Shown: positions 4,014-30,906 of the stretch, in pieces
How positions within the stretch are numbered: position 1 is the first letter of the stretch
Layout: each line of letters opens with the position of its first letter
DNA from: Lentisphaerota bacterium
Lineage (GTDB): Bacteria; Verrucomicrobiota; Kiritimatiellia; UBA8416; VGWJ01
Reading direction: 5' to 3'
Length of the DNA: 64,000 bases
NCBI GenBank assembly: GCA_016873635.1
Contig: VGWJ01000006.1
Coordinates: forward strand, 3,102 to 67,101
Made by a program: the position numbers and the translations under genes
Notes under the pieces: model-generated
What the model saw: the letters and a program-made list of their open reading frames with translations, nothing else
Told to the model about the DNA's origin: nothing
Databases searched by the model: none

Positions 4014-4097
4014 GCCACACCTCGTTGTTGCGAGCGTCTGCGCCACGGCGCCGGGGGCGGAGGGCCGTCATGATTCCGCGCCACTCAAGTACACGGT

Positions 4098-14489: not shown

Positions 14490-15626
14490 ATGAGCGCCAT
14501 CGACGCCGTCTTCGTCCACTGCGCGGACCTGGACCGGCTTCACTACCCGGCGGATTGCCCGTTCAAGACCTCGCGCGCCGGACGCACCCGCGACGCGGTT
14601 GCCGCCATGGGGCTGCTGAACGGCCCGCGCCGCAAGGTCGTCGAGCCGCGGCCGCTGACCCGGGCGGAACTCGAGGCCTTTCACGAACCGCGCTATCTCG
14701 ACGCCCTCCGGGCCGCGGCCGGCGGAGAACTGGGGCCGGAGGGCTTCGCGATGGGCCTCGGCACTCCGGACTGCCCCGTCTTTCCCGACATGTACGACTA
14801 CCCGGCCCTGGCCTGCGGCGCCACGGTCGAGGGCGCGCGCCTGCTCCTGGAAGGGGCGGCGCGCGTCGCGTTCAACCCTTCGGGCGGGTATCACCACGCC
14901 ATGCCCGACCGCGCGGGCGGCTTCTGCTACCTGAACGATATCGTGTTCGGGTGCCGCGCGCTGGCCGCGGCGGGGCGGCGGGTAGCGTTCCTGGACATCG
15001 ACGTGCACCATTGCGACGGCGTGCAGGCGGCCTTCTACGACCGGGCCGACGTCATGACCATTTCCCTGCACGAGACCGGGCACAGCCTCTTTCCGGGCAC
15101 GGGCTTCGAGGACCACATCGGCGAAGGCGCCGGGCGCGGCTACAGCGTGAACGTGCCGCTGCCGCCGGGCACGGACGACAGGGCCTACCTGGCCGCTTTC
15201 CACGCCGTGGCCTCGCCGCTCATGGAGGCTTTCGCGCCGGACGCGGTTGTCGTGGAGGCGGGCATGGACGCCTTGAGCGGCGATCCGCTGGCGCACCTGC
15301 GCCTTACCAACAACGCCTACGCCGAGATTGCGGAATGGGCCGTGGCCTTCGGGCGGCCGCTGCTGGTCACGGGCGGCGGCGGCTACAACGCCGACAACAC
15401 CGTGCGCGGCTGGTCGCTGCTGTGGAGCATCCTCTGCGGGGCGGGCGCCGACAACGAGATGAGCCTCGGGCTGGGCGGCGTCATGCTGGAAGGCACGGAA
15501 TGGCACGGCGGCCTGCGGGACCGGCCCATGCTCTCGCGCCCGGGAAGGATTCCGGGAATTGACGACGCGATCGCGCGGACCGTGGAGCGCGTGAAACGCC
15601 TGGTGTTTCCGTTGCACGGGATTTGA
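14490..15626 (+). CDS. Histone deacetylase-family protein (AcuC/acetoin-utilization-like deacetylase).
   Basis: HDAC signature GFCYLNDIV, DIDVHHCDGVQ, SLHE..H.FPGTG. Confidence 0.85.
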   Translation: MSAIDAVFVHCADLDRLHYPADCPFKTSRAGRTRDAVAAMGLLNGPRRKVVEPRPLTRAELEAFHEPRYLDALRAAAGGELGPEGFAMGLGTPDCPVFPDMYDYPALACGATVEGARLLLEGAARVAFNPSGGYHHAMPDRAGGFCYLNDIVFGCRALAAAGRRVAFLDIDVHHCDGVQAAFYDRADVMTISLHETGHSLFPGTGFEDHIGEGAGRGYSVNVPLPPGTDDRAYLAAFHAVASPLMEAFAPDAVVVEAGMDALSGDPLAHLRLTNNAYAEIAEWAVAFGRPLLVTGGGGYNADNTVRGWSLLWSILCGAGADNEMSLGLGGVMLEGTEWHGGLRDRPMLSRPGRIPGIDDAIARTVERVKRLVFPLHGI

Positions 15627-15674
15627 CGCATCGGCCTTGGCGTGGCCGGGGCCGCGTGGTAGTCTGGCGCGCAT

Positions 15675-17024
15675 ATGGCCTCTCTGCTGATAGTGGACGA
15701 CGACCAGTCGATCCAGACGCAGATGAAATGGTCGCTGGGCGGCGACTATTCCGTCGAACTGGCCGGAGACCGCCCCGGCGCGGTCGCGGCCGCCGCGGGC
15801 AGCGGGGCCGCGGTGATCCTGCTTGACCTGGGCCTGCCGCCGCGTCCCGATGAGCCCGAAGAAGGCATCGCCGCGATGCGCGAACTGCTGGAGGCCAACC
15901 CCCACCGCAAGATCATCGTCATCACCGGCCAGGGGGAAAAGGGCAACGCGCTGCGGGCCGTGGCCGAAGGCGCCTACGATTTCCTCAACAAGCCCATCGA
16001 CATGGATGAGTTGAAAATCATTCTCAAGCGGGCCTTCCACCTGGTGCGGCTGGAAGCGGAATACCGCGAGCTGCAGGGCAAGCTTGCGGCCGACGGCTTT
16101 GAGGGCATGCTGGGCACGAGCCCGCAGATGCAGGCCGTTTTCACGGCCGTTCGCAAGGTTGCGCTGGCCGATGCCCCGGTATTGATCCTGGGCGAGAGCG
16201 GCACGGGCAAGGAGATGGTGGCGCAAGCCATTCACCGCCGCAGCCGGCGGCAGGCGGGCCCTTTCGCGGCCATCAACTGCAGCGCAATTCCCGAAAACCT
16301 CCTGGAGAGCGAGCTCTTCGGGCACGAAAAGGGGGCCTTCACCGGCGCCCACGCCCAGCGGCCGGGCCGCATGGAGGCCGCCGCGGGAGGGACCCTGTTT
16401 CTGGATGAGATCGGGGAAGTCCCGCTCGCCCTGCAGGTCAAGCTGCTGCGCTTCCTGCAGGAGAAGAGCATCCAGCGCGTCGGCGGCCGCCGCCCGATCG
16501 AGATCGACGCGCGCGTGCTCGCGGCCACCAACGTCGACCTGAAACAGGCCATGGCCGCGGAGCGTTTCAGGGAAGACCTCTACTACCGGCTGGCGGTCGT
16601 GACCGTCAGCCTGCCGCCCCTGCGCGAGCGAACGGGGGACATCCCCGTCCTGGCCAAGGTCATCCTGCGCCGCTTTGCGCTGGAGAACAACCGCAAGCTG
16701 TCCGGCTTCAACGCGGAAGCGCTGCGCGTGATGTCGGCCTACGCCTGGCCCGGCAACGTGCGCGAAATGGAGAACCGCATACGCCGGGCGGCCATCATGG
16801 CGGAAGGCCGGCACGTCACGCCCGAGGACCTGGAACTCGATCCGGCCGCGGTGGGCCTCAAGATTACCACCTTGAAAGAAGCCCGCGAAAAGGTCGAGCG
16901 CGAGGCGATCAGGAGAGCCATGGCCCGCCACCGCAACAACCTCAGCCGCGCCGCCGAGGAGCTCGACGTCAGCCGGCCCACCCTGTACGAGCTGATGGAC
17001 AAGCTCGGCATCAGGCGGGAGTGA
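15675..17024 (+). CDS. Sigma54-dependent response regulator of the PrsR/PEP-CTERM-box type (REC + AAA+ sigma54 activator + C-terminal HTH).
   Basis: The receiver has the PrsR hallmark LLDLGLPPRPDEPEEG. GAFTG loop and [15 protein letters not shown] present. C-terminal Fis-type HTH. Confidence 0.85.
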   Translation: MASLLIVDDDQSIQTQMKWSLGGDYSVELAGDRPGAVAAAAGSGAAVILLDLGLPPRPDEPEEGIAAMRELLEANPHRKIIVITGQGEKGNALRAVAEGAYDFLNKPIDMDELKIILKRAFHLVRLEAEYRELQGKLAADGFEGMLGTSPQMQAVFTAVRKVALADAPVLILGESGTGKEMVAQAIHRRSRRQAGPFAAINCSAIPENLLESELFGHEKGAFTGAHAQRPGRMEAAAGGTLFLDEIGEVPLALQVKLLRFLQEKSIQRVGGRRPIEIDARVLAATNVDLKQAMAAERFREDLYYRLAVVTVSLPPLRERTGDIPVLAKVILRRFALENNRKLSGFNAEALRVMSAYAWPGNVREMENRIRRAAIMAEGRHVTPEDLELDPAAVGLKITTLKEAREKVEREAIRRAMARHRNNLSRAAEELDVSRPTLYELMDKLGIRRE

Positions 17025-17102: not shown

Positions 17103-17528
17103 CTAGCCGGCGGCGCCGGAAAAATGCGTCACGAGGTAGGCGCAGGCGTCCTCCAGCGTGGGCAGGATCTTGGTGCAGTACCGCACCATCCACGGGCTGC
17201 AGTCCTTGAACTCGAACGGCGCGAAGGCGACCACGAACTTGCCCAGGTCGTGCGCGGCGTAGAACACCTCCATGCTCGTGCCGATGCTGGGCTTGCAGTA
17301 GTTCACCAGCGCGATGTCGCAGTCGCGCACGTCCTGCAGGTCGAACTCGACGATTTCGTTGGCCGAGTCCACCTCGCGATCCTTGAAATTCCTGCGCATC
17401 GGGTCGAGGATCTCGAACGCGGACGCAAGCAGCGCCCGCGCCGCGGCGCGCCACTGCCGGGCATCTCCGTCGCGCGCATCCATGATCGGCCCGCTCAAGT
17501 ACACGGTCTTTCTCGCGTGTTTCCGCAT
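17103..17528 (-). CDS. Nucleoside 2-deoxyribosyltransferase / DNPH1(Rcl)-like protein.
   Basis: Internal ATG at 17528 gives MRKHARKTVYLSGPIM... with NDT-family motifs (VYLSGPI; DIALVNYCKPSIGTSMEVFYAAHDLGKFVV). The longer ORF 17103..17603 has an Arg-rich extension. Confidence 0.65.
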   Translation of the reverse strand: MRKHARKTVYLSGPIMDARDGDARQWRAAARALLASAFEILDPMRRNFKDREVDSANEIVEFDLQDVRDCDIALVNYCKPSIGTSMEVFYAAHDLGKFVVAFAPFEFKDCSPWMVRYCTKILPTLEDACAYLVTHFSGAAG

Positions 17529-17620
17529 GTGCTCTGCCTCCGCCCGGGGCGCGTGCCGCCGCCCCCCGGTATACGCGCCGGCGTGCGGCCGGCGCGGCCG
17601 CACACCGGGATGGATGTAAG

Positions 17621-17757: not shown

Positions 17758-17849
17758 GTTTCGTATGGATGCATTCTAGTATGGACGCCGCCCGTCTCAA
17801 GTGCAGAATGGCGTCCAAGGCAAGGTGCCGTCCGAAAAGGAGCTGCGCG

Positions 17850-18467
17850 GTGACGGAAGGCGTGCGCGTATACGTTGACCTGGACGACGTGATCTGCGAA
17901 ACGGCGCTCCGCCTGGCGGAGCTGGCGGAAACGCAATTCGGGCGGCGCATACCGTTCGAGGAAATCAGGGAGTTCGATCTCGCCTCATCCTTCGGGCTTA
18001 GCGCGCGGGAACACGCGGCGCTCATGGAAGCGGCGCACGCGCCCGAAGTGCTGCTTTCGTTCCGGGAGGTCCCGGGCGCCGTGGAGACAATCCGCCGCTG
18101 GGCGGCAAAGGGACGCCGCATCTGCGTCGTGACGGGACGGCCACCGGACACCGCCGACATATCGCGCGCGTGGCTGGAGCGGCACGGCGTGCCGGTCGCG
18201 GAGCTGATCTTCGTGGACAAGTACGGCCGGCACGACGGCGCGGCGGCCGGCTGCCGGAGCCTGACGCTCGAGCAGCTCGCCGGCCAGCGGTTCGACGCGG
18301 CCGTCGAGGACGAGCCGCGCACGGCGGACTTCCTGGCGCGGCGCCTGGGAGCGCCCGTTGCGGTGCTGCGACGGCCATGGAACGCGTGCGCCCGTTTCTC
18401 CGCCGGCGCCCGGGAGGCCATCGTGCGCTGCCGCGACTGGGCCGATATTGCCGCCCGCTGGCCGTAA
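17850..18467 (+). CDS. 5'(3')-deoxyribonucleotidase of the NT5C/HAD type (VYVDLDDVICE DxD motif).
   Basis: GTG at 17850, preceded by SD AAAAGGAG 7 nt upstream, gives VTEGVRVYVDLDDV.... The ATG at 17808 is an alternative start. Confidence 0.7.
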   Translation: MTEGVRVYVDLDDVICETALRLAELAETQFGRRIPFEEIREFDLASSFGLSAREHAALMEAAHAPEVLLSFREVPGAVETIRRWAAKGRRICVVTGRPPDTADISRAWLERHGVPVAELIFVDKYGRHDGAAAGCRSLTLEQLAGQRFDAAVEDEPRTADFLARRLGAPVAVLRRPWNACARFSAGAREAIVRCRDWADIAARWP

Positions 18468-18612: not shown

Positions 18613-18679
18613 CGGGTTAGGCTTGCGATAGAGGATGGGGAGCGGAAAACGAAGGAGGCATAGCGTGTCTGGAGCAATC

Positions 18680-18922
18680 ATGCGGGGAATGCGGCTCATG
18701 CTCATCGGGGCCCTGGTTGGCGCGGGGGTGCTGGCCGGAGGGTGCGGCAAGAAGGAGGCGGCGGCGACGGAAGTGCCTCCGGCGGCGACGGAGGCGGCGG
18801 CTGCCGCCGAGGCGTCGATGCTGGATCTGACGTCGGACATTGAAGCGCGCAAGCCGGCGGCGGGGGCTGTCACGGAAGAGACCAAAGAGAAGGCGGAAGG
18901 CGCGCCCCGTTCCGACGGCTGA
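18680..18922 (+). CDS. Small putative lipoprotein (MRGMRLMLIGALVGAGVLAGGCGKKE lipobox LAGGC, followed by an Ala/Glu-rich tail).
   Basis: Signal peptide plus lipobox. Preceded by AAGGAGG-like sequence (gaaggaggcatagcgtg). Confidence 0.45.
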   Translation: MRGMRLMLIGALVGAGVLAGGCGKKEAAATEVPPAATEAAAAAEASMLDLTSDIEARKPAAGAVTEETKEKAEGAPRSDG

Positions 18923-18954: not shown

Positions 18955-20493
18955 TCACGGGCCCGGGGACTTGACGTAGATCAGCTTGTGGTCGCCGGGT
19001 TCGTAGAAATCCTCGACGACGCCGGCTTTGCGGAAGCCGTTGCGCTCGTAGAAACGGCGCGGCGGCTCGTAGTCGCTTCGCGATGACGTCTCGACCACGA
19101 TCAGGCGTCCCTGGCGGGCGCGGATCGAGGATTCGGCGCGGGCCAGGAGGGCGCGCGCCACTCCGCGTCGGTGGCATGCCGGGCTGACGGCTATCCAGTA
19201 CAGGTCGAAAGCGCCTGCCGTGCACGGCGTCGGGCCGTAGCAGGTCCACCCCACGACGGCGCCGTCGAGCGTGGCCGTGAATGACTGGTAATGCCCGCCC
19301 TCGCCCTTTGCGAGCGCGTCGTCGAGCACTTCCCTGGCCACGTCCAGTTCGGACGGCCGGAAGACGCCCGTTTCCTTGAGCAGGTTCAGAATGGGCTGCC
19401 GGTCGTGGGGCGCGGACCACGCAATCTGCAGATCCGCCGGGGGCGCGGACGTGCGCGACGGGGGCGGCTCCGGGGCCACGGGCTGGCCCGCGTTGGCAAG
19501 CAGCGCGGCCACGAACTGGGCAAAGCTGATTCCCGCGGCGTGCAGGGCGGAGGCGAAACCGGCGTCGGGCGCGATATCGGGGTTGGGATTCACTTCGATC
19601 ACGAACGGCCGGCCTTCGGCGTCGAGGCGCATGTCCACGCGCGCGTAGTCGCGGCATCCCATGCGCTTCCAGGCGGCCAGGGCCGCGGCGCGGATTGCAT
19701 CGGCCGCCAACTGATCGACGTCGGCCGGCACGCGGCGGATGGTGTGGGCGTATTCGAACGAATCCTCGATCCACTTTGCGCGGTAGTCCACGATGCGCGG
19801 CAGATGGCGCGGGAAGGCGCTGAAGTCGATTTCGGCCAGCGGCAGGACCGACACCTCGCCGCCTCGCTCCAGCAGCGCGACATTGAATTCGCGTCCCTCG
19901 ATGTAGCGCTCGATCAATGCGGGCTGATGCAATTCCCTGTGGATACGGGCGGCGCGTTCGAGCACGGCGGCGCGGTCGGCCCCGGACAGGACGGAAGAGG
20001 CGTCAATGCCTTCGCCGGCGTCGGCGCGCAGGGGTTTGACGATGACGGTCGCGGAGGGAACAAAGGCCGGCAGGTCGGTGTCGCCGGCGTCCAGGACCGC
20101 GGCGACGGGCACGGGGATGCCGGCCGCGCGCATTGCGACTTTGCTTTGCCATTTGTCAAGCGCCAGCAACTGGCAGGCCGTGCCGCTGCCGGTCCAGGCC
20201 TTGCCGAGGGCCGCGCACACGGCGGGCACGAGGCAGGCATCGGTCGCGGACCCGTCCAGGCTCTCGACCAGGTTGATGACGCAAGGTTCGCGGCCGGAGG
20301 ATATCTCCCGGCCGGCCTCGCGCAGCGTGCGCACGGCGGCCAGGCGGTGCGGCACGCCGAGCTCGGTCAGGCCCGCGGCGACGGCGGCGGCTTCGACGAG
20401 CACGCCGGCGTCGGATTCGGCGTCGCGGCGGCTGCCGTCGGCGGCCGGGCCGCGCGGCTGATTGTGGAGGACGAGGACGGGGGGGCGTTCCAC
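18955..20493 (-). CDS. Fusion protein: N-terminal D-Ala-D-Ala-ligase-family ATP-grasp enzyme plus C-terminal GNAT acetyltransferase domain.
   Basis: The ATP-grasp core (...KPLRADAGEGIDASSV..., EIDFSAF, IEVNPNPD) is followed by a ~150-aa GNAT domain (...YWIAVSPACHRRGVARALLARAE...RFYERNGF). Start overlaps the upstream stop. Confidence 0.85.
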   Translation of the reverse strand: MERPPVLVLHNQPRGPAADGSRRDAESDAGVLVEAAAVAAGLTELGVPHRLAAVRTLREAGREISSGREPCVINLVESLDGSATDACLVPAVCAALGKAWTGSGTACQLLALDKWQSKVAMRAAGIPVPVAAVLDAGDTDLPAFVPSATVIVKPLRADAGEGIDASSVLSGADRAAVLERAARIHRELHQPALIERYIEGREFNVALLERGGEVSVLPLAEIDFSAFPRHLPRIVDYRAKWIEDSFEYAHTIRRVPADVDQLAADAIRAAALAAWKRMGCRDYARVDMRLDAEGRPFVIEVNPNPDIAPDAGFASALHAAGISFAQFVAALLANAGQPVAPEPPPSRTSAPPADLQIAWSAPHDRQPILNLLKETGVFRPSELDVAREVLDDALAKGEGGHYQSFTATLDGAVVGWTCYGPTPCTAGAFDLYWIAVSPACHRRGVARALLARAESSIRARQGRLIVVETSSRSDYEPPRRFYERNGFRKAGVVEDFYEPGDHKLIYVKSPGP

Positions 20494-20495
20494 GG

Positions 20496-21500
20496 TCAGG
20501 CTCCCGCGCGCGTCGCGGCGGCGGGCGTCAGGCGTTGCGCGGCGCTGTCGATGATTGCGCCGATGAGTTGCACGTAGGGCATGCCTTCCTGCGTGGCGAT
20601 CATGGGCAGATCGGAGTGGGTGGGGTGCAGTCCGGGCAGGGCGTTCATTTCCATGAACGCCGGCTTGCCGCGGCGGTCCAGGCGAATGTCGACGCGGCCG
20701 GCGTCACGGCATTCCAGGGCCCGATAGGCCTTGAGCGCGAGGTCTTCGACGTCCGCCCGCAGCGCGCCGCGCTCCAGGGCCGCGTAGCGCACAACCGTCT
20801 CGCATTTCTCTTTGACGTCGAAGGAGTAGTCCGCGGAGGAGGCGTTGGGAAGCATGCTGATTTCCATGGTGCCGAGCACGCGCGCGTCCGGACCCGTGCC
20901 GAGCACGCCGGTGGTGAACTCCCGCCCGGGCAGGTACTCCTCCACCAGAACGGGCTGGCGCAGCCGCCGCAGCAGGGGCAGGGCCGTGCGCCGCAGATCC
21001 TGCGGGCCGGCCACGCGCGATTGATGGTCGATGCCCTTGCCGGTGCCCTCGGCGACGGGCTTGACGAAAAGGGGGTAGTCCAGGCTTACGGCGTCGAGGT
21101 CTGCGGGCCGGGATACAAGGCAGAAGCGCGGCGTGGGCAGGCCGCAGGCGAGCACGATGCGTTTGGCCACGGCCTTGTCCAGGGTGACGGCGCAGACCAG
21201 CGCGTCGGACATGGCGCAGGGCACGCCGTAGAGGTCGAGCAGGGCCGGGACCTGGGCTTCGCGGCTGCGTCCTTCCATGCCTTCGGCAATGCTGAACACG
21301 AGGTCCCAGCGGTCGCCCCCGACCAGGCGCGCCGCGAGGGCGCGTCCGCGTCCGACGGGATCGACTTCGTGGCCGCAGGCCCGGATGGCATCGGCCAGGG
21401 CGGCGATCGTGCTCTCGGAGTCGAACTCGGCCACGTCCTCCGCCGAGTAGCCCTCCGTGAGGTATTCGCTGCGCAAATCGTAGACCAGGCCGATTTTCAT
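20496..21500 (-). CDS. D-alanine--D-alanine ligase-family ATP-grasp protein (334 aa).
   Basis: MKIGLVYDLRSEY... with Ddl-like motifs (FVKPVAEGTGKGI, EEYLPGREFT, MEMNALPGL). The rest of ORF 20496..22799 upstream of this start is Arg-rich antisense junk. Confidence 0.85.
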   Translation of the reverse strand: MKIGLVYDLRSEYLTEGYSAEDVAEFDSESTIAALADAIRACGHEVDPVGRGRALAARLVGGDRWDLVFSIAEGMEGRSREAQVPALLDLYGVPCAMSDALVCAVTLDKAVAKRIVLACGLPTPRFCLVSRPADLDAVSLDYPLFVKPVAEGTGKGIDHQSRVAGPQDLRRTALPLLRRLRQPVLVEEYLPGREFTTGVLGTGPDARVLGTMEISMLPNASSADYSFDVKEKCETVVRYAALERGALRADVEDLALKAYRALECRDAGRVDIRLDRRGKPAFMEMNALPGLHPTHSDLPMIATQEGMPYVQLIGAIIDSAAQRLTPAAATRAGA

Positions 21501-21544
21501 TGGTTGCGGCGGCTGATTCGCATCGCGGCGCCCGCAAGCCGCCT

Positions 21545-22951
21545 TCAGGCCGTGTGCGGCCACAGCAACTGCTGGCCGGACACGGAGTCGCAGGCGGCCC
21601 GTCGCTGGACGGAACGGCGCCGGTTGCGATTGCTCCGTTGCGACGACCGGCCGCAGGCCAGGGCCCAGACGCCGCTGTTGTCCGCCGGGCCGCCGCCCGC
21701 ATAGAGCGGAAGATCGTTGCAGGGCTCCGGATAGCTGATCATGTCGCCGGCATAGTTGCGCAGCACGGTGTGGGTCGGGCTGGCGGAAATCACGTAGTTC
21801 GGCAGGACCGGGATCTTGCCGCCGCCGTGCGGGGCGTCCACGACGAACGTCGGTATGGCCAGCCCGCTCAGCCGGCCGCGCAGGTATTCCATGATTTCGA
21901 TGCCTTTGGCCACCGGCGTGCGGAAGTGCTCCACGCCCCGCACCAGGTCGCACTGGAACAGGTAGTACGGCCGCACGCGCGCGCGTACCAGGCGCCGGAA
22001 CAGGTCGGCGAGCAGCGGAGCGGAATCGTTGACCCCGCGCAGCAGCACGGTCTGGTTGCCCACGGGAACGCCGGCGTCGGCCAGGCGCGCGCAGGCGGCC
22101 TCGGAAGCGGGCGTGAGTTCCGCGGGGTGATTGAAGTGCGTGTTGACGTACAGCGGATGGTATTTGCGCAGCATCCGGACAAGCTCGTCGGTGATGCGCA
22201 TGGGGAGGACGACGGGAGTGCGCGTTCCGATGCGGATGATGTCCACGGAGGGCGCCTCGCGCACGGCCCGGATGACGCGTTCCAGCGCGTCCGTCGACAT
22301 GGTGAAGGGGTCGCCGCCGGATATGATCACGTCGCGGACTTCCGGATGGACCGAGAGGTATTCCGTGGTCTGCGTCAGGCGCACGCCGGTTATGCACTCT
22401 TCCGTGTGCCCGGCGACGCGCTTGCGCGTGCAGTGCCGGCAGTACGCGGCGCAGGCCGTGGTTGCGATCAGCAGCGCGCGATCGCGGTAGCGGTGCACCA
22501 GCCCCGGGACGGGCATGTCGCCGTCTTCGCCGAGCGGATCGTCCCTCAGGAAAGGCGGATCGACCAGTTCCTTGCCGTCCGGCACGCACATGGCGAACAC
22601 GGGGTCGGTGGCGTCCAGGCGGCGGATAAGCGAGGCATAGTAGGGGGTGATGGCCAGGGGGAACCGGTTGGCCGCGGCCGCCGTGGCAGCCGTGGTCCTC
22701 AGCGAAGGAAAGCGGCGCTTGAGCGCGGCGACGGAACGCACGCGGTGGCGAAGCTGCCACTGCCAGTCGTCCCAAACCGTGACGTCTCCGTCGGCGCAAA
22801 CCGCGGCGTCAGTCCCCGGCAGGGGGGATTGCGCGTTCCGCGGTGTGGCGTCTGACGGCGGAGGTTCCTCATCGGAGTCCCTCCTTTCATCCCGCGCGTT
22901 TGCCAGGGCAACTCCAGCGTCACGGCTGTCTTGCCTCGCACTCTCCTTCAT
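21545..22951 (-). CDS. kamA: Lysine 2,3-aminomutase (KamA/AblA family radical-SAM enzyme).
   Basis: CAAYCRHCTRKR CxxxCxxC motif, the WDDWQWQLRHRV N-terminal signature, and a PLP-binding region. ATG at 22951 is preceded by GGAGAA; the GTG at 22993 is possible. Confidence 0.9.
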   Translation of the reverse strand: MKESARQDSRDAGVALANARDERRDSDEEPPPSDATPRNAQSPLPGTDAAVCADGDVTVWDDWQWQLRHRVRSVAALKRRFPSLRTTAATAAAANRFPLAITPYYASLIRRLDATDPVFAMCVPDGKELVDPPFLRDDPLGEDGDMPVPGLVHRYRDRALLIATTACAAYCRHCTRKRVAGHTEECITGVRLTQTTEYLSVHPEVRDVIISGGDPFTMSTDALERVIRAVREAPSVDIIRIGTRTPVVLPMRITDELVRMLRKYHPLYVNTHFNHPAELTPASEAACARLADAGVPVGNQTVLLRGVNDSAPLLADLFRRLVRARVRPYYLFQCDLVRGVEHFRTPVAKGIEIMEYLRGRLSGLAIPTFVVDAPHGGGKIPVLPNYVISASPTHTVLRNYAGDMISYPEPCNDLPLYAGGGPADNSGVWALACGRSSQRSNRNRRRSVQRRAACDSVSGQQLLWPHTA

Positions 22952-23105: not shown

Positions 23106-23121
23106 TGCAGGGGGCGTGCCA
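23106..23121 (-). promoter_or_regulatory. Sigma54 (-24/-12) promoter TGGCACG-CCCC-CTGCA, oriented toward kamA.
   Basis: Reverse complement of 23106..23121 reads TGGCACGCCCCCTGCA, matching consensus TGGCACG-N4-TTGCW at all positions but one. Lies ~150 bp upstream of the kamA start and immediately downstream of the sigma54 activator gene. Confidence 0.6.
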
Positions 23122-23250
23122 ATCCGCGCGCGGCGGGGCCCATCCTCTGCAACAAACTTGCGCGTAAAAGCTTAGGCGAGAACGGCGCGCGGTCGCCGGA
23201 GGCAGCAGGTTTCTTCGCCGCCGGGAATCGGAAAGGAGATCCGCGCGCAA

Positions 23251-23274
23251 CCGGAAAACGATTTCCTATTCCGG
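23251..23274. promoter_or_regulatory. Candidate enhancer/UAS palindrome CCGGAAAACGATTTCCTATTCCGG (GGAA..TTCC core) ~130 bp upstream of the kamA sigma54 promoter.
   Basis: Inverted repeat seen directly. A similar GGAA-N-TTCC palindrome sits at the equivalent distance from the second sigma54 promoter. Confidence 0.35.
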
Positions 23275-23287
23275 CGTGTCCGGCGGA

Positions 23288-24715
23288 TCATCGCGGAGGG
23301 GCGCGGAAGTCCTCCTTGCGCAGCCCGTAGCGTCTCATCTTGTTGAAGAGCGAGCGCGGCTCCAGTCCCGCGCGCCGGGCGGTTTCGCCTACGCGTCCGC
23401 CGGTGGCGGCGAGCAGCCTGGCAAGGTATGCGCGCTCGAAGCGCTCGACGGCGGTCTCGCGGATCTCCTTCAGCGGCCGTTCGATCCAGTCGTCGGGGAA
23501 GTCCTCGCCGCCGGGCAAGCGCGGCGCGGGCGCGCCTTCACGGCCGCCGGCGATTTCCGCCGGCAGGTCCGCGAGGCCGATCTGGTCTTCCTCGCACAGG
23601 AGCACGGCGCGTTCCAGAACGTTGATCAATTCGCGCACGTTGCCCGGCCAGGCGTATTCGCAGAGGGCGTCCATGGCTTCGGGCGCGATGCGCCTGGCGC
23701 CGCGTCCGATCCGCGCGAAAAGCCCTTCCATGATGGACGACGCCAGCGCGGGAATATCCCCGCTGCGCTCGCGCAGGGGGGGGACCTCGATGGCGACGAC
23801 TCCCAGGCGGTAGTAAAGGTCGCCGCGAAAACGCTTGTGCTCGACTTCTTCGCGGATATCCCGGTGCGTGGCGGCGATGACGCGCACGTCGACGGGTATC
23901 TTTTTTTCGCTGCCCACGGGCGCGACTTCGTAGTCCTGCAGCACGTGCAGCAGCTTGACCTGCAGGTGAAAGGGCATCTCGCCGATCTCGTCCAGGAAGA
24001 GCGTGCCGCCGTGGGCCAGCTCGAAGCATCCGCGCTGGGCGCGCGTGGCTCCGGTAAAAGCCCCTTTCTCGTGTCCGAAGAGCTGGCTTTCCAGGAGGTT
24101 CTCGGGAATGGCGCCGCAGTTCACGGAGATGAAAGGGCCGTCGGAGCGGCGGCCGTCGTTGTGAATGGCGCGCGCCAGCCGCTCCTTGCCCACGCCCGTC
24201 TCGCCGCTGATCAACAGCGGGGTGTCGCTGTCGGCCACGCGCGTCACGGTGCGCATGAAGCGCTGCATGGCGGGGCTGTCCGAAACGAAGTCGCCGAGGC
24301 CGGGGCGCGGCGTGGTGCGCCGTACGGCGACGGTCTTGCTCAGCAGTTCGCGGCGCTTCCTGGTGATCAGGCGGATGGCTTCCCAGATCACGTCGTCGGG
24401 CACGCCCGTGTAGATCGCCGCCTCGGCGCCCGCGGCGCGCAGGATGGCGAGGTCCTCGGCGTCGTCGTCGCCGGAAAGCACGATCAGGTCCGGGGCGTTG
24501 GCGGAGGACGTGAGGCGGCGGACGTTCTCCTCGACGGGTTCGGGAATCACGCGGTCGCAGACAATGAGGACGTCGGACAAAACCTGCCCGACGGTATCCC
24601 ACGCGGCCTCCCTGGCGACCGGAGCGCGCACGAATGCGTCCACGTCGCGCAGCAGGGCCAGCACGCGGGAGCGGAGCTTGATCTGGTCAACCAGCAGCAG
24701 AATGCGAAGCTGCAT
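23288..24715 (-). CDS. Sigma54-dependent Fis-family transcriptional activator (divergent receiver-like N-domain + AAA+ + HTH).
   Basis: GETGVGKE Walker [22 protein letters not shown], and a C-terminal HTH. ATG at 24715 ([11 protein letters not shown]). Confidence 0.9.
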
Positions 24716-24828
24716 CTGACGGTCCCGGCGTCCTGCGGACGATTCCCTTCGCGGCCGTGGCCGCGAAACGGACAATCACGCGGGTGAATCTATCGGAAGG
24801 CATGCGGGGGTCAATGGGAAAAGCGCGA

Positions 24829-24967: not shown

Positions 24968-24983
24968 TGGCACGGTGCCTGCA
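24968..24983 (+). promoter_or_regulatory. Sigma54 promoter TGGCACG-GTGC-CTGCA, divergent from the activator gene and driving two small ORFs.
   Basis: TTGGCACGGTGCCTGCA has the same architecture as the kamA promoter. First downstream ATG is at 25019, ~36 bp after the -12 element. Confidence 0.6.
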
Positions 24984-25223: not shown

Positions 25224-25406
25224 ATGCCCAACGGAACAAAGCCGAAGAAGAGGGCCGCGGCGCGGCGGAATGCCGTGCGGAAGCTTGCGCCCGAAGAGCG
25301 CTATCGCAAGATCCAGGAAGAAGCGTACCTGCGCGCCGAACGGGACGGCTTTCAGAAGGATCCCGTCGAGTACTGGCTCGCGGCCGAGTCCGTGTTCAAA
25401 GCCTAG
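25224..25406 (+). CDS. DUF2934-family small protein (EERYRKIQEEAYLRAERDGFQKDPVEYWLAAE).
   Basis: Matches the DUF2934 consensus E.IRERAY.LWE..G.P.G...EDWL.AE. 60 aa. Confidence 0.6.
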   Translation: MPNGTKPKKRAAARRNAVRKLAPEERYRKIQEEAYLRAERDGFQKDPVEYWLAAESVFKA

Positions 25407-26827
25407 CGCGGCTCCAGCCGACGGTAGAGGCCTATCGGAAAGAGCAGGAAACGCATCGGCCACGTGCCCATCAGCAGGTTCATGAGCTGAAGGGAACGCG
25501 CGGCCTTGGGTTCCCTGATGCGGCGCACCAGGGCGATGCATGCGATGCGCATGGGGATATTCAGCAGGAACAGCAGGTGGTAGTTGACCCACCGGTGTCC
25601 CATCGCCTCCAGATCGAACCCCGCCGTAAGCTTCAGAAATCCGCCGCCCGCGACGGCCCCCAGGCCGCCGCAGATGCCGGCAAGGCCGGTGATGGACGCA
25701 ATGAACATGGAACGGTTCCGCTGAGGCGCGATTTTGAGCATGTAGCCGTTGCCGGCGACCAGCAGCCCGGCCTCCCACATGCTGTCGAAGAAAAGCATCG
25801 CGGGGAGGAACCACAGGGCCGTTTCCCGGGTTGTCAATAGAAACGCCGCGATTACGAGCGATTTGAGGCCCATGCAGACGGACAGCACCGGCCGATGGCC
25901 GTGCCGGTCGGCGATCTTTCCCCAGAACGAAGAGACCAGCGCTATGCCCAGGCCGATGACCGACCACACCAGGGTGGCCTGCCACACGCTGAGACCGATG
26001 ACCTTGAGCACGTAGACCTGCATGAAAGACGCCGCGAAGAGCGCCGTCGCCGCCCAGGCGCACGAATAGACGACGAAAGGCCGGTACTCGGCGTGGCGCA
26101 AAGGCGCCAGCATGGTTTCGATGATGGGCCTGCCACGCATGACGACGTTCGGCGGTTCGTCCACCCACACGAACAGGCAGATGTCAAGGATGCCCGCCGC
26201 GCTTGCCACCGTCGCCAGGATGGGAAAAGTGATCGTGATGGGCGCGCGCACGAAGGAAACGTAGGCGGCGACCGCGAGGTACGAAAGCGTCCAGGTCGCG
26301 AAAAGCCATTGCTGGCGGCGGCCCCAGTAGCGGTTGAGCACGCGCCGCGGAATCAGGTCCGCCATCCACGACAGGAACAGGGGCCCGGACATGTTGACAA
26401 GCGCGCCGGAAAGAGCGGCCAGGAGCAGCACGAAGGCCACGCCCCGACTGCCGCGCAGGGAGGCAAAGAGCGCCGGCACGACGGCCATCGGGATGTACAG
26501 GAAACGTCCCGCGATCACGAGCGCCATGAACAACGCCTTGCGGCGCGGGACCACGTTGGTGATCACCGCCCCGAGGAACTGCAGCGCGAGCATGATCATG
26601 GGAATCCCGCCCAGCAGCCCGAACTGCGCGTCGGTCGCGCCGAGCGCTCGCAGGAATGCCACGAACGCGGGGCTGCCCGTGCCGACGACGAAGACCATCG
26701 CCAGGCAGCCGGCCGCGGTGATCAGCCGCAACGAGCGCGCGAGCGGAGAGGTGTGGGGTTTATCTTTCACCGTTTCATGCGCATAATCCGCATTGCCGGC
26801 CTTGAGAAGGCCGGCGGGAAGCGTCAC
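25403..26827 (-). CDS. MFS transporter (12 predicted TM segments).
   Basis: Hydrophobic periodicity throughout. Start uncertain: GTG at 26827, GTG at 26770 or ATG at 26698. Confidence 0.8.
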   Translation of the reverse strand: MTLPAGLLKAGNADYAHETVKDKPHTSPLARSLRLITAAGCLAMVFVVGTGSPAFVAFLRALGATDAQFGLLGGIPMIMLALQFLGAVITNVVPRRKALFMALVIAGRFLYIPMAVVPALFASLRGSRGVAFVLLLAALSGALVNMSGPLFLSWMADLIPRRVLNRYWGRRQQWLFATWTLSYLAVAAYVSFVRAPITITFPILATVASAAGILDICLFVWVDEPPNVVMRGRPIIETMLAPLRHAEYRPFVVYSCAWAATALFAASFMQVYVLKVIGLSVWQATLVWSVIGLGIALVSSFWGKIADRHGHRPVLSVCMGLKSLVIAAFLLTTRETALWFLPAMLFFDSMWEAGLLVAGNGYMLKIAPQRNRSMFIASITGLAGICGGLGAVAGGGFLKLTAGFDLEAMGHRWVNYHLLFLLNIPMRIACIALVRRIREPKAARSLQLMNLLMGTWPMRFLLFPIGLYRRLEPR

Positions 26828-26982: not shown

Positions 26983-28200
26983 TTACGACGCGGGCAGCGT
27001 CACGATTCCGAACCAGAAGCTGTCGATGGCCTGCACCACCTTCTCGAACTGCTCGAAGTCCACGGGTTTGGTGACGTAGCAGTTGGCGTTGAGGTTGTAA
27101 GCCCGCAGGATGTCTTCGTCCTGCGTCGAAGTGGTCAGCACGACTACGGGAATACGCTTGAGGTCGGGGTCGGCCTTGATCTCGGCCAGGACCTCGCGTC
27201 CGTCCTTCCTGGGAAGGTTCAGGTCCAGAAGGACCATGTCCGGGCGCGGCGCCTTCGTATAGGGAGGCTCCTTCCGCAGAAAAGCCATGGCCGCGACGCC
27301 GTCCTCGACGACGTGCAGCGTGTTGCACAGCTTGTTCTCCTTGAGAGCGATCCGAACCAGGTCGGCGTCGCCGGCATTGTCCTCAACCAGAAGGATGTCC
27401 GCCACATGCGCGTTTTTCATGTCAGGCCTCCTCTTTCGCCCGGGGCAGGGTGAAGTGGAAGGTTGAACCCTTTCCCGGCTCCGATTCAAGCCATATCTTG
27501 CCGCCATGCCGCTGAGTTCCTCCACGGGCCGTGACAGGCCGGCGGCGACGAAGACGGCAAGCAAGACGCCCGCGGCCAGGACGGCCCCGGCGATCAGCAG
27601 GCTGTCGCGCAGATGCTGTCGCAGCAGTACGACGACGAAATCCACTCCCACGCTTGCGCCCAGGCAGTACTTCCGGCCCCGCGCGTCCGTGCGGGGCACG
27701 AGCACCATCCGTCCGTGGCCCCACTCGTTCCGGAAGGAGCTGTAGGAGATGCGATTCTGGCCGAAGACGGCGTCAAAAGCGGAGGGGTCGCGGTGCGTCT
27801 CCCAGAACCTGGCGTGGTCCTGCCTGGTCACGTCATGGCCGGGCGAGGTGGACGTGGTGAAAACGATCCTGTCGTCAACCCGCATGCAGCTCCACAGGTA
27901 CTGCAGGCCCAACTCCCGGCACCGCCGGTTGTTCTCGGCGACGATCAGGCGGTCGTAATCCTCCGGCGAAATGGAATCCGGCCCGTCGAGCCCGTCGAAG
28001 AACTTCTCGTTCCCGGGCGGCACGTTGCCGGCCAGGACTGCCGCCATGAACAGCCGCCGGTCGATGCCTGCCAGCAGCTCGCGACGCATGGTCCGGCAGC
28101 TGACCGTGACCAGAATCGCCGAGACGACCGTGATCATGAGCGCGGCAGCCGCCGCGTACTGGCTGCGCAGGCTCAGGCGATCCATCAGCTTCCGCAACAT
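26983..28200 (-). CDS. Membrane protein with TM1, a periplasmic Cache-like sensor domain and TM2, fused in-frame to a C-terminal CheY-like receiver domain. No kinase or output domain.
   Basis: ORF is continuous from ATG 28200 ([11 protein letters not shown]..., SD GGAG) to 26983. The receiver portion also has its own ATG at 27420 with a strong SD (AAGAGGAGG), so it may additionally be translated alone. Confidence 0.65.
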
Positions 28201-28232
28201 GGCTTCCGCTCCATGCCCTTTCGCGCTGGGGC

Positions 28233-29138
28233 TCAGTTCATGGCCGGCTGCGCGGGTATCGTGAAATAGAAGCAGGCGCCGCGGCCCGGCTCGGACTCGA
28301 CCCACAGGCGCCCGCCATGACGCTCCACAATCGCCCGGCACAGCGCGAGCCCTGCCCCCAAGCCCGGGTATTCGCGCGCGGTGTGCAGGCGCTGGAAAAC
28401 GGCGAAGATGCGGTCGCGCCGCGCGGGATCAATGCCGATGCCGTTGTCGCTGACGGCGAAAAGGTATTCGCCGTTCCGCTCCGCGGCGCTGACGCGGATG
28501 CGCGGCGGCCGGTCTTTGGCCCTGAACTTGACGGCGTTGTCGAGCAGGCAGGCGAGGAGATCGCCAAGCTGCGCCGGGTCGCCGCTCAAGACCGGCAGGG
28601 GCGACTGCTCGATTTCGCCCCCGGCCGCCTCCAGGACCGGCGCCATGCGGCGCCGCACGGACTCGAGCAGAGCGTTGCAGTCCACGGGAGCCGGCGGCCG
28701 GTCGCAGGCCCACACGCGCGCGATCCGCAGGAGCCCGTCGAGCATAGCCTGGGCTTCGGCGGAGGCGCGCTCAACGTGACCGGCCAGGCGGGACAGTTCG
28801 GAGTCGGAGCCGTTCGCAAGGTGGCGGGCAATCAGTTCCGCGAAGGACCGCGCCTGACGGATGGGCCGCTGCAGATCGTGCGAGACGGCGTACACGAATT
28901 CCTTGAGCCTCGTTCCGGACGGCTCGCTGTCCCTGCCGGGCGGTGGACCTGCGCCGCGCGGCGCGGGCGAAGACGCGCCCGCGCAGGCCGACTTGTCGCT
29001 GGACGTCAACGTTCCTCCTTGGCTTGGCGCCTGCCGCGAGCCCCGGGGCGCACGGGGCCGGAAGTCCGCGTCATTTGTCCTCCAGGACTTCCGCCAGCAC
29101 CCGCTCCAGCTCGGCCATCCGGTACGGCTTGGGCACAA
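28233..29138 (-). CDS. Histidine kinase core (HisKA H-box [14 protein letters not shown] + HATPase_c), no TM or sensor domain. N-terminal boundary uncertain.
   Basis: H, N, G1 and G2 boxes are present. The first ~85 codons are Ser/Pro/Gly/Arg-rich and overlap the 3' end of the upstream hybrid kinase. Confidence 0.7.
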
Positions 29139-30615: not shown

Positions 30616-30906
30616 GCCCTGTCTCGCGCAGCGGTTTCCCTGAACCTCTCCCGCCGGCGGAGCGCTCGACGCCGCGTCCCGCAAACAGGGTTTCGGACCG
30701 CTCGGGAAAGAATATAGCGGCTAAAACGTTGTGCTACAAGCGCTATCGACGGCCGCGCAGCCGTGGGCGACGGGCCGGTCGGCCATGCGGCGGGCGCCCT
30801 TGCTTCCCGGCTGTTTCTCCGCGGGCCAAAAGGGTGGCGGCGGCGCGCGCGCGCTGCTATGCTCGGGAGGCGAATCGGGTCCGGGCGGCGGCAAGGAGTA
30901 GCGGAC

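Follow-up and report, generated by a model that had tools for sequence, protein, structure and literature searches.

The operon described here combines a lysine 2,3-aminomutase (KamA), two ATP-grasp ligases of the D-Ala-D-Ala ligase (Ddl) type and a GNAT acetyltransferase, and it most likely makes an acetylated small molecule that contains beta-lysine. We give somewhat better than even chances to the fuller reading, in which it is a self-contained, inducible route to a small, amide-linked, N-acetylated beta-lysine metabolite assembled without the ribosome. The operon lies in a 64,000-nt stretch (the window) of contig VGWJ01000006.1 from a Lentisphaerota bacterium (assembly GCA_016873635.1). 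It is uncharacterised and occurs in hundreds of bacterial species. The features are collected in Table 1.

Table 1. Features of the operon and its upstream region (positions in the window).
Feature	Position	Strand	Remarks
KamA	21545..22951	(-)	468 aa; Pfam Radical_SAM + LAM_C
ATP-grasp ligase 1 ('Ddl2')	20496..21500	(-)	334 aa; Pfam Dala_Dala_lig_C, 99 bits; Ddl fold
ATP-grasp+GNAT fusion	18955..20493	(-)	512 aa; GTG start; Dala_Dala_lig_C aa 150-332, GNAT aa 391-492
ATP-grasp ligase 2 ('g2'), N-terminal fusion domain, ~aa 1-335	19489..20493	(-)	Dala_Dala_lig_C 84 bits
GNAT domain, fusion ~aa 356-512 + stop codon	18955..19428	(-)	Pfam Acetyltransf_7/_1/_10
Sigma54 enhancer-binding protein (EBP) gene	23288..24775	(-)	Pfam Sigma54_activat 238 bits, AAA_lid_14, HTH_8
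Sigma54-type -24/-12 site TGGCACGCCCCCTGCA	23106..23121	(-)	GG-N10-GC element, ~155 nt upstream of KamA ATG
Candidate upstream activator sites, blocks CGTTTTCCGGTT and TTTCCG	23229..23260	(-)	~110-140 nt upstream of -24 element

On the source contig JGI calls exactly the same three open reading frames, in agreement with the first-pass annotation, which had described three tightly linked minus-strand genes with KamA first, a Ddl-like ligase next and the ATP-grasp+GNAT fusion third. Their boundaries had been called overlapping or adjacent; they are adjacent but do not overlap, with gaps of 44 nt between KamA and Ddl2 and 2 nt between Ddl2 and the fusion.

KamA matches the lysine 2,3-aminomutase (LAM) structure 2A5H with an E-value of 6e-129. 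When the two are aligned, the CxxxCxxC motif (C125, C129 and C132) and the PLP-binding K337 are present, and none of the 61 operon-linked orthologues deviates at any of them. The lysine-specific residues D293 (QCD(293)L) and D330 (VVD(330)AP), together with R134, are likewise kept in the window and in 61 of 61 orthologues. In the 2A5H structure Asp293 and Asp330 bind the epsilon-ammonium group of lysine, and Lys/Asn occupy these positions in glutamate 2,3-aminomutase; their role in the latter enzyme was reportedly addressed by Ruzicka and Frey. Retention of both aspartates makes beta-lysine the expected product, and KamA is predicted to form it from lysine, as had been proposed from its radical-SAM motif. 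Its best NCBIfam model is the AblA equivalog TIGR03820, for which it scores under the cut-off (478.3 against 525.4 bits), while it exceeds that of the KamA subfamily model TIGR00238 (307 against 199 bits). It is therefore a KamA-family, AblA-like protein that is not automatically assignable as an equivalog. An identity as EpmB was considered and rejected, the LAM_C domain being present, the TIGR03821 score of 242 bits lying under the cut-off (369), and the neighbourhood containing neither efp nor epmA.

Both ATP-grasp proteins have the Ddl fold and find their best PDB matches among Ddl enzymes, with a TM of 0.84 in the Foldseek search with g2. Weak matches to Pfam TTL and a weak similarity to the ATP-grasp domain of cyanophycin synthetase (E 0.006) were also obtained. 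Against the best NCBIfam Ddl model (NF002378, cut-off 243) Ddl2 scores 155 bits and the fusion 115 bits, and every other Ddl/Van model scores lower. When the proteins are aligned to the DdlB sequence, which was checked to be identical to 1IOV/2DLN, the equivalents of K97, K144, E180, E187, K215, R255, D257, E270 and N272 show no variation among 61 Ddl2 and 46 fusion orthologues. Ddl2 also retains E15; in the fusion this column is ambiguous, as an invariant Glu lies one position off. The residues that specify D-Ala are replaced in Ddl2 (S150T, Y216E, L282D) and in g2 (S150A, Y216W, G276D, S281A, L282G), so that the two ligases differ from Ddl and from one another, and S150, Y216 and L282 are substituted across all orthologues of both proteins. 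Judged by these residues, read from an alignment to DdlB at ~30% identity, both ATP-grasps are catalytically intact with an altered substrate pocket; by the residues and by scores far under the cut-offs, they are not D-Ala-D-Ala ligases.

The GNAT domain is closest to the stand-alone GNAT Dde_3044 (PDB 2R7H; E=7e-37, 41% identity, TM 0.91), and its acetyl-CoA motif R-x-x-G-x-A is invariant along with many further residues. Compared alone with NCBIfam (E<=1), the domain gives only weak matches, the best to RimI (39 bits, under the cut-off) and others to PRK03624 and AAC models; no AblB model is among these matches, although that release may not hold one. Eleven of 80 operons, and L090, have a fusion of a GNAT to an acetylpolyamine-amidohydrolase-like (APAH) domain between KamA and the ligases. 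The HDAC part of this operon-embedded protein best matches acetylpolyamine amidohydrolases (243 bits), enzymes that act on small-molecule N-acetyl-amines. A sirtuin gene is associated with the operon at two loci. The window itself has no GNAT~APAH protein; its nearby HDAC gene at 14490..15626 is of class I, RPD3/HDAC8-like, and probably has no connection with the operon.

Relatives of the fusion family number 1169 cluster representatives (50% identity, E<=1e-30) and occur in at least 592 species genomes. Of the 61 related loci with enough upstream sequence to be evaluated, 48 contain the full triad in the same order and on the same strand, and the arrangement is not a matter of chance. The triad occurs in Planctomycetota, Verrucomicrobiota (Kiritimatiellia, Lentisphaeria), Acidobacteriota, Desulfobacterota, Myxococcota and other phyla. 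At six of the 61 loci the fusion stands by itself, and at four there is no KamA within 8 kb; coupling to beta-lysine is therefore frequent, not absolute, over that distance. Elsewhere the modules are split, g2 being a separate gene in L083-L088, with the order Ddl2-g2-GNAT-KamA (L083-85, L088) or KamA-Ddl2-g2-GNAT (L086/87), and in other cases Ddl2 and g2 form an alternative tandem fusion (P0472, P0478, P0486, L090, L091). This separation, reordering and refusion constitutes Rosetta-stone evidence that all modules act together. In every version seen the GNAT is joined to an ATP-grasp, either covalently or by translational coupling.

The first-pass annotation had made conservation of KamA adjacency the point to check, and the adjacency extends across phyla and through the split, reordered and differently fused versions. 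Its authoring model did not recognise the gene combination, and full-text searches of the accessible literature likewise gave no description of a KamA + Ddl-like + ATP-grasp-GNAT combination or of a pathway for the triad. The only conserved neighbours of the operon are regulators and the GNAT~HDAC protein, so that the other substrates must be common metabolites. An exporter, importer or salt-related gene conserved with the operon was not found, and the carriers span freshwater, groundwater, digester, soil and marine habitats; an osmolyte role is therefore not specifically indicated.

The EBP gene lies directly upstream of the operon; its product carries an AAA+ Sigma54_activat domain and a Fis-type HTH behind a receiver-like N-terminus of atypical form. 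JGI places the gene start at 24715, and the protein scores under every NCBIfam equivalog cut-off. Whereas shuffles give an expectation of 0.09 sigma54-type sites, the window has two, one of them upstream of KamA. In the closest relative, L002, an EBP orthologue (68% identical) is immediately upstream of KamA and the same sigma54-type motif lies at the equivalent place (3761-3776). The CGTTTTCCGGTT and TTTCCG blocks are also kept between the two EBP-kamA intergenic regions and may be activator binding sites. Predicted sigma54 control of the operon is thus supported in this genome and in L002, in keeping with the promoter and dedicated adjacent activator first noted here. Such control is lineage-specific, since 22 other loci have a TetR regulator instead.

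In the proposed pathway KamA would convert L-lysine to (3S)-beta-lysine, as its conserved active-site residues suggest, and after an acetylation step Ddl2 and g2 would each create a single amide bond by way of an acyl-phosphate. The acidic E216 (omega-loop) and D282 (second-substrate position) of Ddl2 suggest a cationic nucleophile, e.g. (beta-)lysine. In that acetylation the GNAT would modify one amino group with acetyl-CoA; the likeliest target is the epsilon-amine, by analogy to AblB and to the acetyl-aminoalkyl specificity of the APAH-type deacetylase of some lineages, where the GNAT~APAH protein could reset or remove the acetyl group. Transcription here would be driven from the sigma54 promoter by the neighbouring EBP, with TetR acting in other lineages. 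The product may be an acetylated di- or tri-'peptide' or short oligomer with beta-lysine, serving as a compatible solute or polyamine-like cytoplasmic metabolite; we infer both this acetylated di- or oligopeptide and its role.

Enzymes of the ATP-grasp and GNAT types can also take proteins or polymers as substrates. Working like RimK, TTL or LysX, the ATP-grasps might attach beta-lysine to a carboxylate or lysine on a protein, with the GNAT acetylating it and an HDAC or sirtuin reversing the mark, as a functional analogue of EF-P beta-lysylation. The sub-threshold RimI match of the GNAT, the TTL matches, and the HDAC-family deacetylases at 11 loci and sirtuin at two agree with this, but no target gene (efp, ribosomal protein or carrier protein) is conserved beside the operon, the HDAC domain best fits small-molecule amidohydrolases, and KamA, a LAM of the long type that includes the C-terminal domain, falls short of the EpmB cut-off; we regard such protein modification as unlikely. 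A shade less likely is a longer polyamide (oligo- or poly-beta-lysine or a cyanophycin-like copolymer) that one ligase elongates and the GNAT caps, as a nitrogen store or polycation. Two amide ligases are present for a single dedicated building-block enzyme, cyanophycin synthetase is weakly similar, sigma54 regulation is commonly coupled to nitrogen status, and the L084 operon adjoins glutamate synthase, PII and ammonium transporter genes. However, that neighbourhood is seen at this one locus only, no CphA-like primer-binding or Mur-like domain and no conserved dedicated depolymerase were found, and Ddl-type enzymes usually form a single bond.

An ordinary N-epsilon-acetyl-beta-lysine osmolyte pathway, with the ATP-grasps accessory or unrelated, would account for AblA being the best model for KamA and for the constant presence of a GNAT, and clusters of AblA with AblB have been described in bacteria (PMC2821294, PMC3543383). 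It is made improbable by the 2R7H type of the GNAT, with no AblB model among its matches, by the constant coupling of this domain to an ATP-grasp, and by the conservation of both ATP-grasps with intact active sites. Over the aligned region KamA is 55-60% identical to the catabolic LAM of Clostridium subterminale, as would suit the first step of lysine fermentation; this is nevertheless very improbable, given ATP-consuming ligases at odds with such a route and a neighbourhood without conserved kamDE, kdd, kce or kal homologues or another catabolic gene. Least credible is that the ligases are peptidoglycan D-Ala-D-Ala (or D-Ala-D-X) paralogues beside KamA by accident. Fold and best PDB matches point that way, and NCBI names an identical protein 'D-alanine--D-alanine ligase [Lentisphaerae bacterium]', as JGI does its relatives. 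Against it stand the sub-cut-off scores, the loss of the D-Ala residues in all orthologues, the association with KamA and GNAT that persists in different phyla and fusion types, and a position outside any mur/dcw context. The proteins thus do not behave as bona fide Ddl enzymes, and in this respect the initial interpretation is supported.

Returning to the acetylated beta-lysine metabolite, it is conceivable, at rather less than even odds, that the four-module set makes an undescribed and very widespread class of primary or stress metabolite: an N-acetylated oligo-amide of beta-lysine that functions as compatible solute or polyamine-like cation, its charge tuned by GNAT~APAH in some lineages. 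If so, this class would be present in hundreds of species from at least seven phyla, and the set would currently be mis-annotated as cell-wall D-Ala-D-Ala ligase.

The ATP-grasps share with the Ddl/VanA family the fold, the three-domain architecture and all ATP/Mg/acyl-phosphate residues, but differ in their low identity and sub-threshold scores, in the replacement of S150, Y216 and L282 (and G276 and S281 in the fusion), and in a context of KamA and GNAT without cell-wall genes. The GNAT~APAH-like fusions recall polyamine acetylation and deacetylation (SpeG-type GNAT + APAH), although the window lacks such a protein. The operon may be considered analogous to PylB/PylC of pyrrolysine biosynthesis, but KamA is a PLP-dependent 2,3-aminomutase and not a PylB-type carbon-skeleton mutase, PylD is missing, and two ligases and a GNAT are present. 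Ngg/AsnO makes an N-acetylated dipeptide solute, N-acetylglutaminylglutamine amide (NAGGN), without ribosomes or NRPS, and likewise joins GNAT and ATP-grasp in one polypeptide with an acetylate-and-ligate logic. The domain order is reversed, however, with ATP-grasp preceding GNAT here, and the Ngg ATP-grasp is RimK-like and of another lineage; the Ngg equivalog TIGR03103 gives the fusion 27 bits against a cut-off of 569, over the ATP-grasp part only. The present operon also has no amidotransferase and draws its building block from a radical-SAM aminomutase. AblA/AblB, including YodP-KamA of B. subtilis, shares the long-form lysine 2,3-aminomutase and GNAT in one operon, with beta-lysine as committed intermediate. 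Here the GNAT is of another subfamily and two obligatory ATP-grasp amide ligases, fused to it or to each other, are added, so that a product exceeding acetyl-beta-lysine in size is expected. On the best reading, the operon's proposed synthesis of an N-acetylated, amide-linked beta-lysine metabolite is analogous to AblAB, Ngg and PylB/PylC.

The operon at 18955..22951 comprises three genes on the minus strand, all in one direction, encoding KamA, the ATP-grasp ligase Ddl2, and a fusion of a second ATP-grasp ligase (g2) to a GNAT acetyltransferase. Open reading frames, Pfam domains and JGI gene calls with identical boundaries (metagenome 3300020222, 115-kb contig Ga0194125_10000118) confirm the three-gene cassette of the first-pass annotation. 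The genes had been described as overlapping or adjacent; with intergenic gaps of 44 nt and 2 nt they are adjacent, and the overlap does not hold. GC content in the window is ~69%. At its start, strong AT skew (-0.44 and -0.39) is explained by a minus-strand gene that the window boundary cuts; a long plus-strand frame there is its antisense shadow, with no Pfam match. The small convergent ORF downstream of the operon likewise gave no Pfam match.

Features of the operon and its surroundings in the window
Feature	Position	Strand	Description
KamA gene (gene 1)	21545..22951	-	468 aa; Pfam Radical_SAM + LAM_C
Ddl2 gene (gene 2)	20496..21500	-	334 aa; Pfam Dala_Dala_lig_C, 99 bits
Fusion gene (gene 3)	18955..20493	-	512 aa, GTG start; Dala_Dala_lig_C 84 bits (aa 150-332), then GNAT (aa 391-492)
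Sigma54-type -24/-12 element TGGCACGCCCCCTGCA	23106..23121	-	~155 nt upstream of KamA ATG
Sigma54 enhancer-binding protein (EBP) gene	23288..24775	-	Directly upstream of operon; Sigma54_activat 238 bits
Second sigma54-type site TGGCACGGTGCCTGCA	24968..24983	+	Between EBP and MFS transporter genes
MFS transporter gene	25403..26827	-	
Kinase/regulator cluster	26983..31000	-	Hybrid histidine kinase + response regulator; = L081 1..3511; upstream of MFS gene
Small convergent ORF	18635..18922	+	95 aa; LAGGC lipobox-like motif, Ala/Glu-rich tail; stop 33 nt from fusion-gene stop codon
NT5C-type 5'-nucleotidase	17769..18467	+	Divergent pair with next, just downstream of operon
Nucleoside 2-deoxyribosyltransferase-like	17103..17603	-	
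Class I deacetylase (HDAC) gene	14490..15626		RPD3/HDAC8-like
HDAC gene and PEP-CTERM-box response regulator	14490..17024		PrsR equivalog, 603 bits (cut-off 502)
Truncated gene	1..4067	-	>1340 aa; rich in Ala, Glu, Arg, Leu, Gln; coiled-coil-like
Antisense ORF	18..4073	+	1351 aa

The alignment of KamA to Clostridium subterminale LAM (PDB 2A5H; E=6e-129) shows the CxxxCxxC cluster, Arg134, the PLP lysine K337, Asp293 and Asp330, all of them invariant in 61 alignable operon-linked orthologues, including the short forms of split operons. Asp293 and Asp330 bind the epsilon-ammonium group of lysine, with Lys/Asn in their place in glutamate 2,3-aminomutase. The top NCBIfam model is AblA (478 bits, just below the 525-bit cut-off); scores lie far below the cut-offs of the EpmB, glutamate 2,3-aminomutase and arginine 2,3-aminomutase models. 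By every available residue test KamA is a lysine 2,3-aminomutase, and the retained lysine-specific residues together with the model scores lead us to expect beta-lysine as its product, in agreement with the first-pass annotation.

Sequence identity is ~30% between Ddl2 and the fusion, and again ~30% when either is compared with E. coli DdlB. On their best Ddl family models Ddl2 reaches 155 bits and the fusion 115 bits, short of the cut-off of 243, and the AlphaFold models of both proteins are confident (pLDDT 86.6 and 90.2), with LysX/ArgX, RimK, L-amino-acid ligases, DcsG, BacD and PylC as further structural neighbours. Residues were compared by alignment of 61 Ddl2 and 46 fusion orthologues to DdlB, the sequence of which was checked to be identical to 1IOV/2DLN. 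Residues for ATP, Mg and the acyl-phosphate (K97, K144, E180, E187, K215, R255, D257, E270 and N272; DdlB numbering) are invariant in both families. Those that recognize D-Ala are changed, in Ddl2 by S150T, Y216E and L282D, and in the fusion by S150A, Y216W, G276D, S281A and L282G. The E15 column, where the fusion has Ser yet an invariant Glu lies one residue off, was therefore left out of the conclusions. Both ATP-grasps have the Ddl fold but, scoring below the Ddl cut-offs and with the D-Ala residues replaced, are not Ddl enzymes. Invariant catalytic residues combined with replaced recognition residues predict that Ddl2 and g2 are active amide ligases with new, mutually different specificities; speculatively, the acidic substitutions at the omega-loop and second-substrate positions of Ddl2 would suit a cationic nucleophile. 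A tblastn search of the whole window with DdlB found the two operon genes and no genuine Ddl elsewhere.

The C-terminal 170 residues of the fusion match PDB 2R7H (E=7e-37, 41% identity, TM 0.91), a stand-alone 177-aa GNAT (Dde_3044, Desulfovibrio G20) from structural genomics without known function. The GNAT domain retains the acetyl-CoA-binding motif; a scan of this domain by itself yielded no AblB match and, below threshold, only RimI and AAC-type ones.

The strongest evidence for the system is its conservation. In a pattern and tblastn scan that took one genome for each GTDB species, at least 592 genomes had relatives of the fusion, and an exhaustive HMMER search gave 1169 cluster representatives (50% identity) at E<=1e-30. 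Carriers include Planctomycetota (Phycisphaerae, Pirellulales, Gimesia, Blastopirellula, Fuerstiella), Verrucomicrobiota (Kiritimatiellia, Lentisphaeria/Victivallales), Acidobacteriota, Desulfobacterota (Desulfobacterales, Syntrophales), Myxococcota, Eisenbacteria and others, with fusion identities as low as 34%; Gimesia maris and Blastopirellula marina are two of the named carriers. Gemmatimonadota are also among the phyla with the ligase family. Of the best 80 loci, 61 extend 3.5 kb or more upstream of the fusion gene, and 48 of these carry kamA, ddl2 and the fusion in the same order and on the same strand; the remainder have kamA and the fusion (3/61), ddl2 and the fusion (4/61) or the fusion alone (6/61). 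Stand-alone GNAT homologues led to split operons in which the same four modules are separate, overlapping genes, ordered ddl2-g2-GNAT-kamA (loci L083, L084, L085 (Longimicrobiales) and L088) or kamA-ddl2-g2-GNAT (L086, L087). Ddl2 and g2 are also fused in tandem (proteins P0472, P0478, P0486); this fusion precedes a GNAT in L091, and lies between kamA and a GNAT-HDAC fusion in L090. One module set is kept through two different types of Rosetta-stone fusion and three gene orders, which shows that KamA, Ddl2, g2 and GNAT work together. The KamA adjacency of the first-pass annotation extends to split, reordered and differently fused forms. The catalytic modules are identified, intact and associated, and the ligases have non-Ddl pockets.

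Apart from regulators and one accessory protein, no further gene family is conserved around the operon, so that lysine, acetyl-CoA, ATP and common metabolites are all that the pathway requires. For four loci lacking kamA (L021, L055, L062, L065), a different building-block enzyme in place of KamA was considered and rejected, the neighbours (sirtuin, enolase-like, glutamate dehydrogenase, TPR, oxidoreductase) being unrelated. In L022 and L033 the fusion directly follows kamA with no Ddl2 between, so a minimal two-gene version may exist, perhaps with a smaller product. In the split operon of L084 (8849..14501) genes for glutamate synthase, PII and an ammonium transporter come after kamA, a single hint of a link to nitrogen metabolism.

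The accessory protein (~580 aa) lies between kamA and ddl2 in 11/80 loci from five phyla, including L002, the locus most closely related to that of the window, from a Lentisphaerae MAG. For its N-terminal GNAT, neither PDB nor NCBIfam offered an informative match; its C-terminal HDAC-family domain best matches the acetylpolyamine amidohydrolases (APAH) 9GKZ, 6PHR and 3Q9B (up to 243 bits), enzymes that deacetylate small N-acetyl-aminoalkyl compounds. This likeness points to a small cationic amine as product, the acetylation state of which is relevant, with the acetyl group as protecting group or charge switch. The window has neither the accessory protein nor any APAH-type gene. Its own HDAC gene was rejected as a system member, being of class I and unlike the APAH-like domains embedded in operons, and is probably not related to the operon; the PEP-CTERM regulator beside it and the McsA/McsB-like and ClpC-like genes upstream of that pair (JGI calls) are probably also unconnected. 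Sirtuins (2 loci) and PIG-L (one organism) were too sparse to count as recurrent partners; these sporadic neighbours (PIG-L/LmbE, sirtuins; L086 992..2407, L021 2514..3821, L078 4896..5660) echo the GNAT-APAH association and are too rare for interpretation.

A sigma54-type promoter element and an adjacent activator gene, as in the first-pass annotation, were both found and are both kept in L002. From shuffles, 0.09 copies of the sigma54 pattern would be expected in the window, which has two. In L002 the EBP is 68% identical and in the same position, the same promoter motif lies between its gene and kamA, and upstream blocks CGTTTTCCGNTT and TTTCCG, common to both loci, are candidate activator sites. 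Elsewhere (22 loci) it is a TetR-family gene that precedes kamA; sigma54 control of the operon is lineage-specific. Between 18400 and 25500 a search of Rfam at E<=1 gave one chance sRNA match and nothing else; the fold of the 155-nt 5' UTR is not unusual (z = -0.57), and the idea of a riboswitch or structured leader there was rejected. Scans of the operon region for sigma70 promoters and intrinsic terminators gave nothing above shuffle expectation. The second sigma54-type site faces two tiny plus-strand genes (JGI calls; 54 aa, and a 60-aa DUF2934 protein), and the same EBP may therefore also drive a divergent small-protein transcript. The kinase/response-regulator cluster could provide the input for the activator's atypical receiver-like N-terminus.

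For the substrates, order of steps, regiochemistry and physiological role of the pathway we infer the following. KamA would form (3S)-beta-lysine, one amine of which would be acetylated by the GNAT; the GNAT-linked ATP-grasp and Ddl2 would then each form one amide bond via an acyl-phosphate, giving an N-acetylated beta-lysine di- or tripeptide-like compound or a short oligomer. The earlier reading of an acetylated beta-lysine peptide is supported as far as computation goes. A beta-lysine polymer as product is quite unlikely. Modification of a protein would fit the structural neighbours LysX and RimK, the likeness of the GNAT to RimI and the deacetylases that accompany the operon, yet no target gene is conserved near the operon and the associated deacetylase is of small-molecule type, so that we consider it unlikely. 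Bacterial ablA-ablB clusters are noted in passages of PMC2821294 and PMC3543383, but a plain acetyl-beta-lysine pathway would leave two conserved, intact, GNAT-fused ligases unexplained and is decidedly improbable. The residue, score and context data contradict both lysine fermentation, which is highly improbable, and a cell-wall Ddl role for the ATP-grasps, which is scarcely credible.

The gene combination was not recognized in the first-pass annotation, and a full-text literature search found no description of the KamA, Ddl-like and ATP-grasp-GNAT triad; the passages it led to deal with AblA-AblB, YjeK-efp or genes without connection to the system. Databases label the ligases as Ddl (an NCBI protein 100% identical to gene 2 is named 'D-alanine--D-alanine ligase [Lentisphaerae bacterium]'); if the acetylated-peptide reading is true, a large, broad family (the 1169 clusters at 50% identity, spread over PVC bacteria, Acidobacteriota, Desulfobacterota, Gemmatimonadota and others) is systematically mis-annotated. 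It would also represent a new way of making beta-amino-acid peptides without ribosome or NRPS, and add a metabolite to the short list known for beta-lysine (acetyl-beta-lysine, EF-P beta-lysyl-lysine and streptothricin-type antibiotics). Two new ATP-grasp specificities would be useful for biocatalysis of beta-peptide bonds, and in environmental phyla that have been little studied the operon would provide a physiological marker (stress or nitrogen response) open to testing. The pathway is large, cross-phylum, uncharacterized and directly testable, with the fused, split and reordered variants as ready-made constructs for reconstitution.

The system is not categorically new, as its enzymes belong to well-known superfamilies and its chemical logic has precedents. 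AblA/AblB pair an aminomutase with a GNAT to produce the solute acetyl-beta-lysine; Ngg combines GNAT and ATP-grasp in one protein that produces the acetylated dipeptide solute N-acetylglutaminylglutamine amide (NAGGN); and PylB/PylC join a radical-SAM lysine mutase to a Ddl-like ligase. These systems support the proposed chemistry, yet as chemical precedents, none being a family match to the operon proteins.
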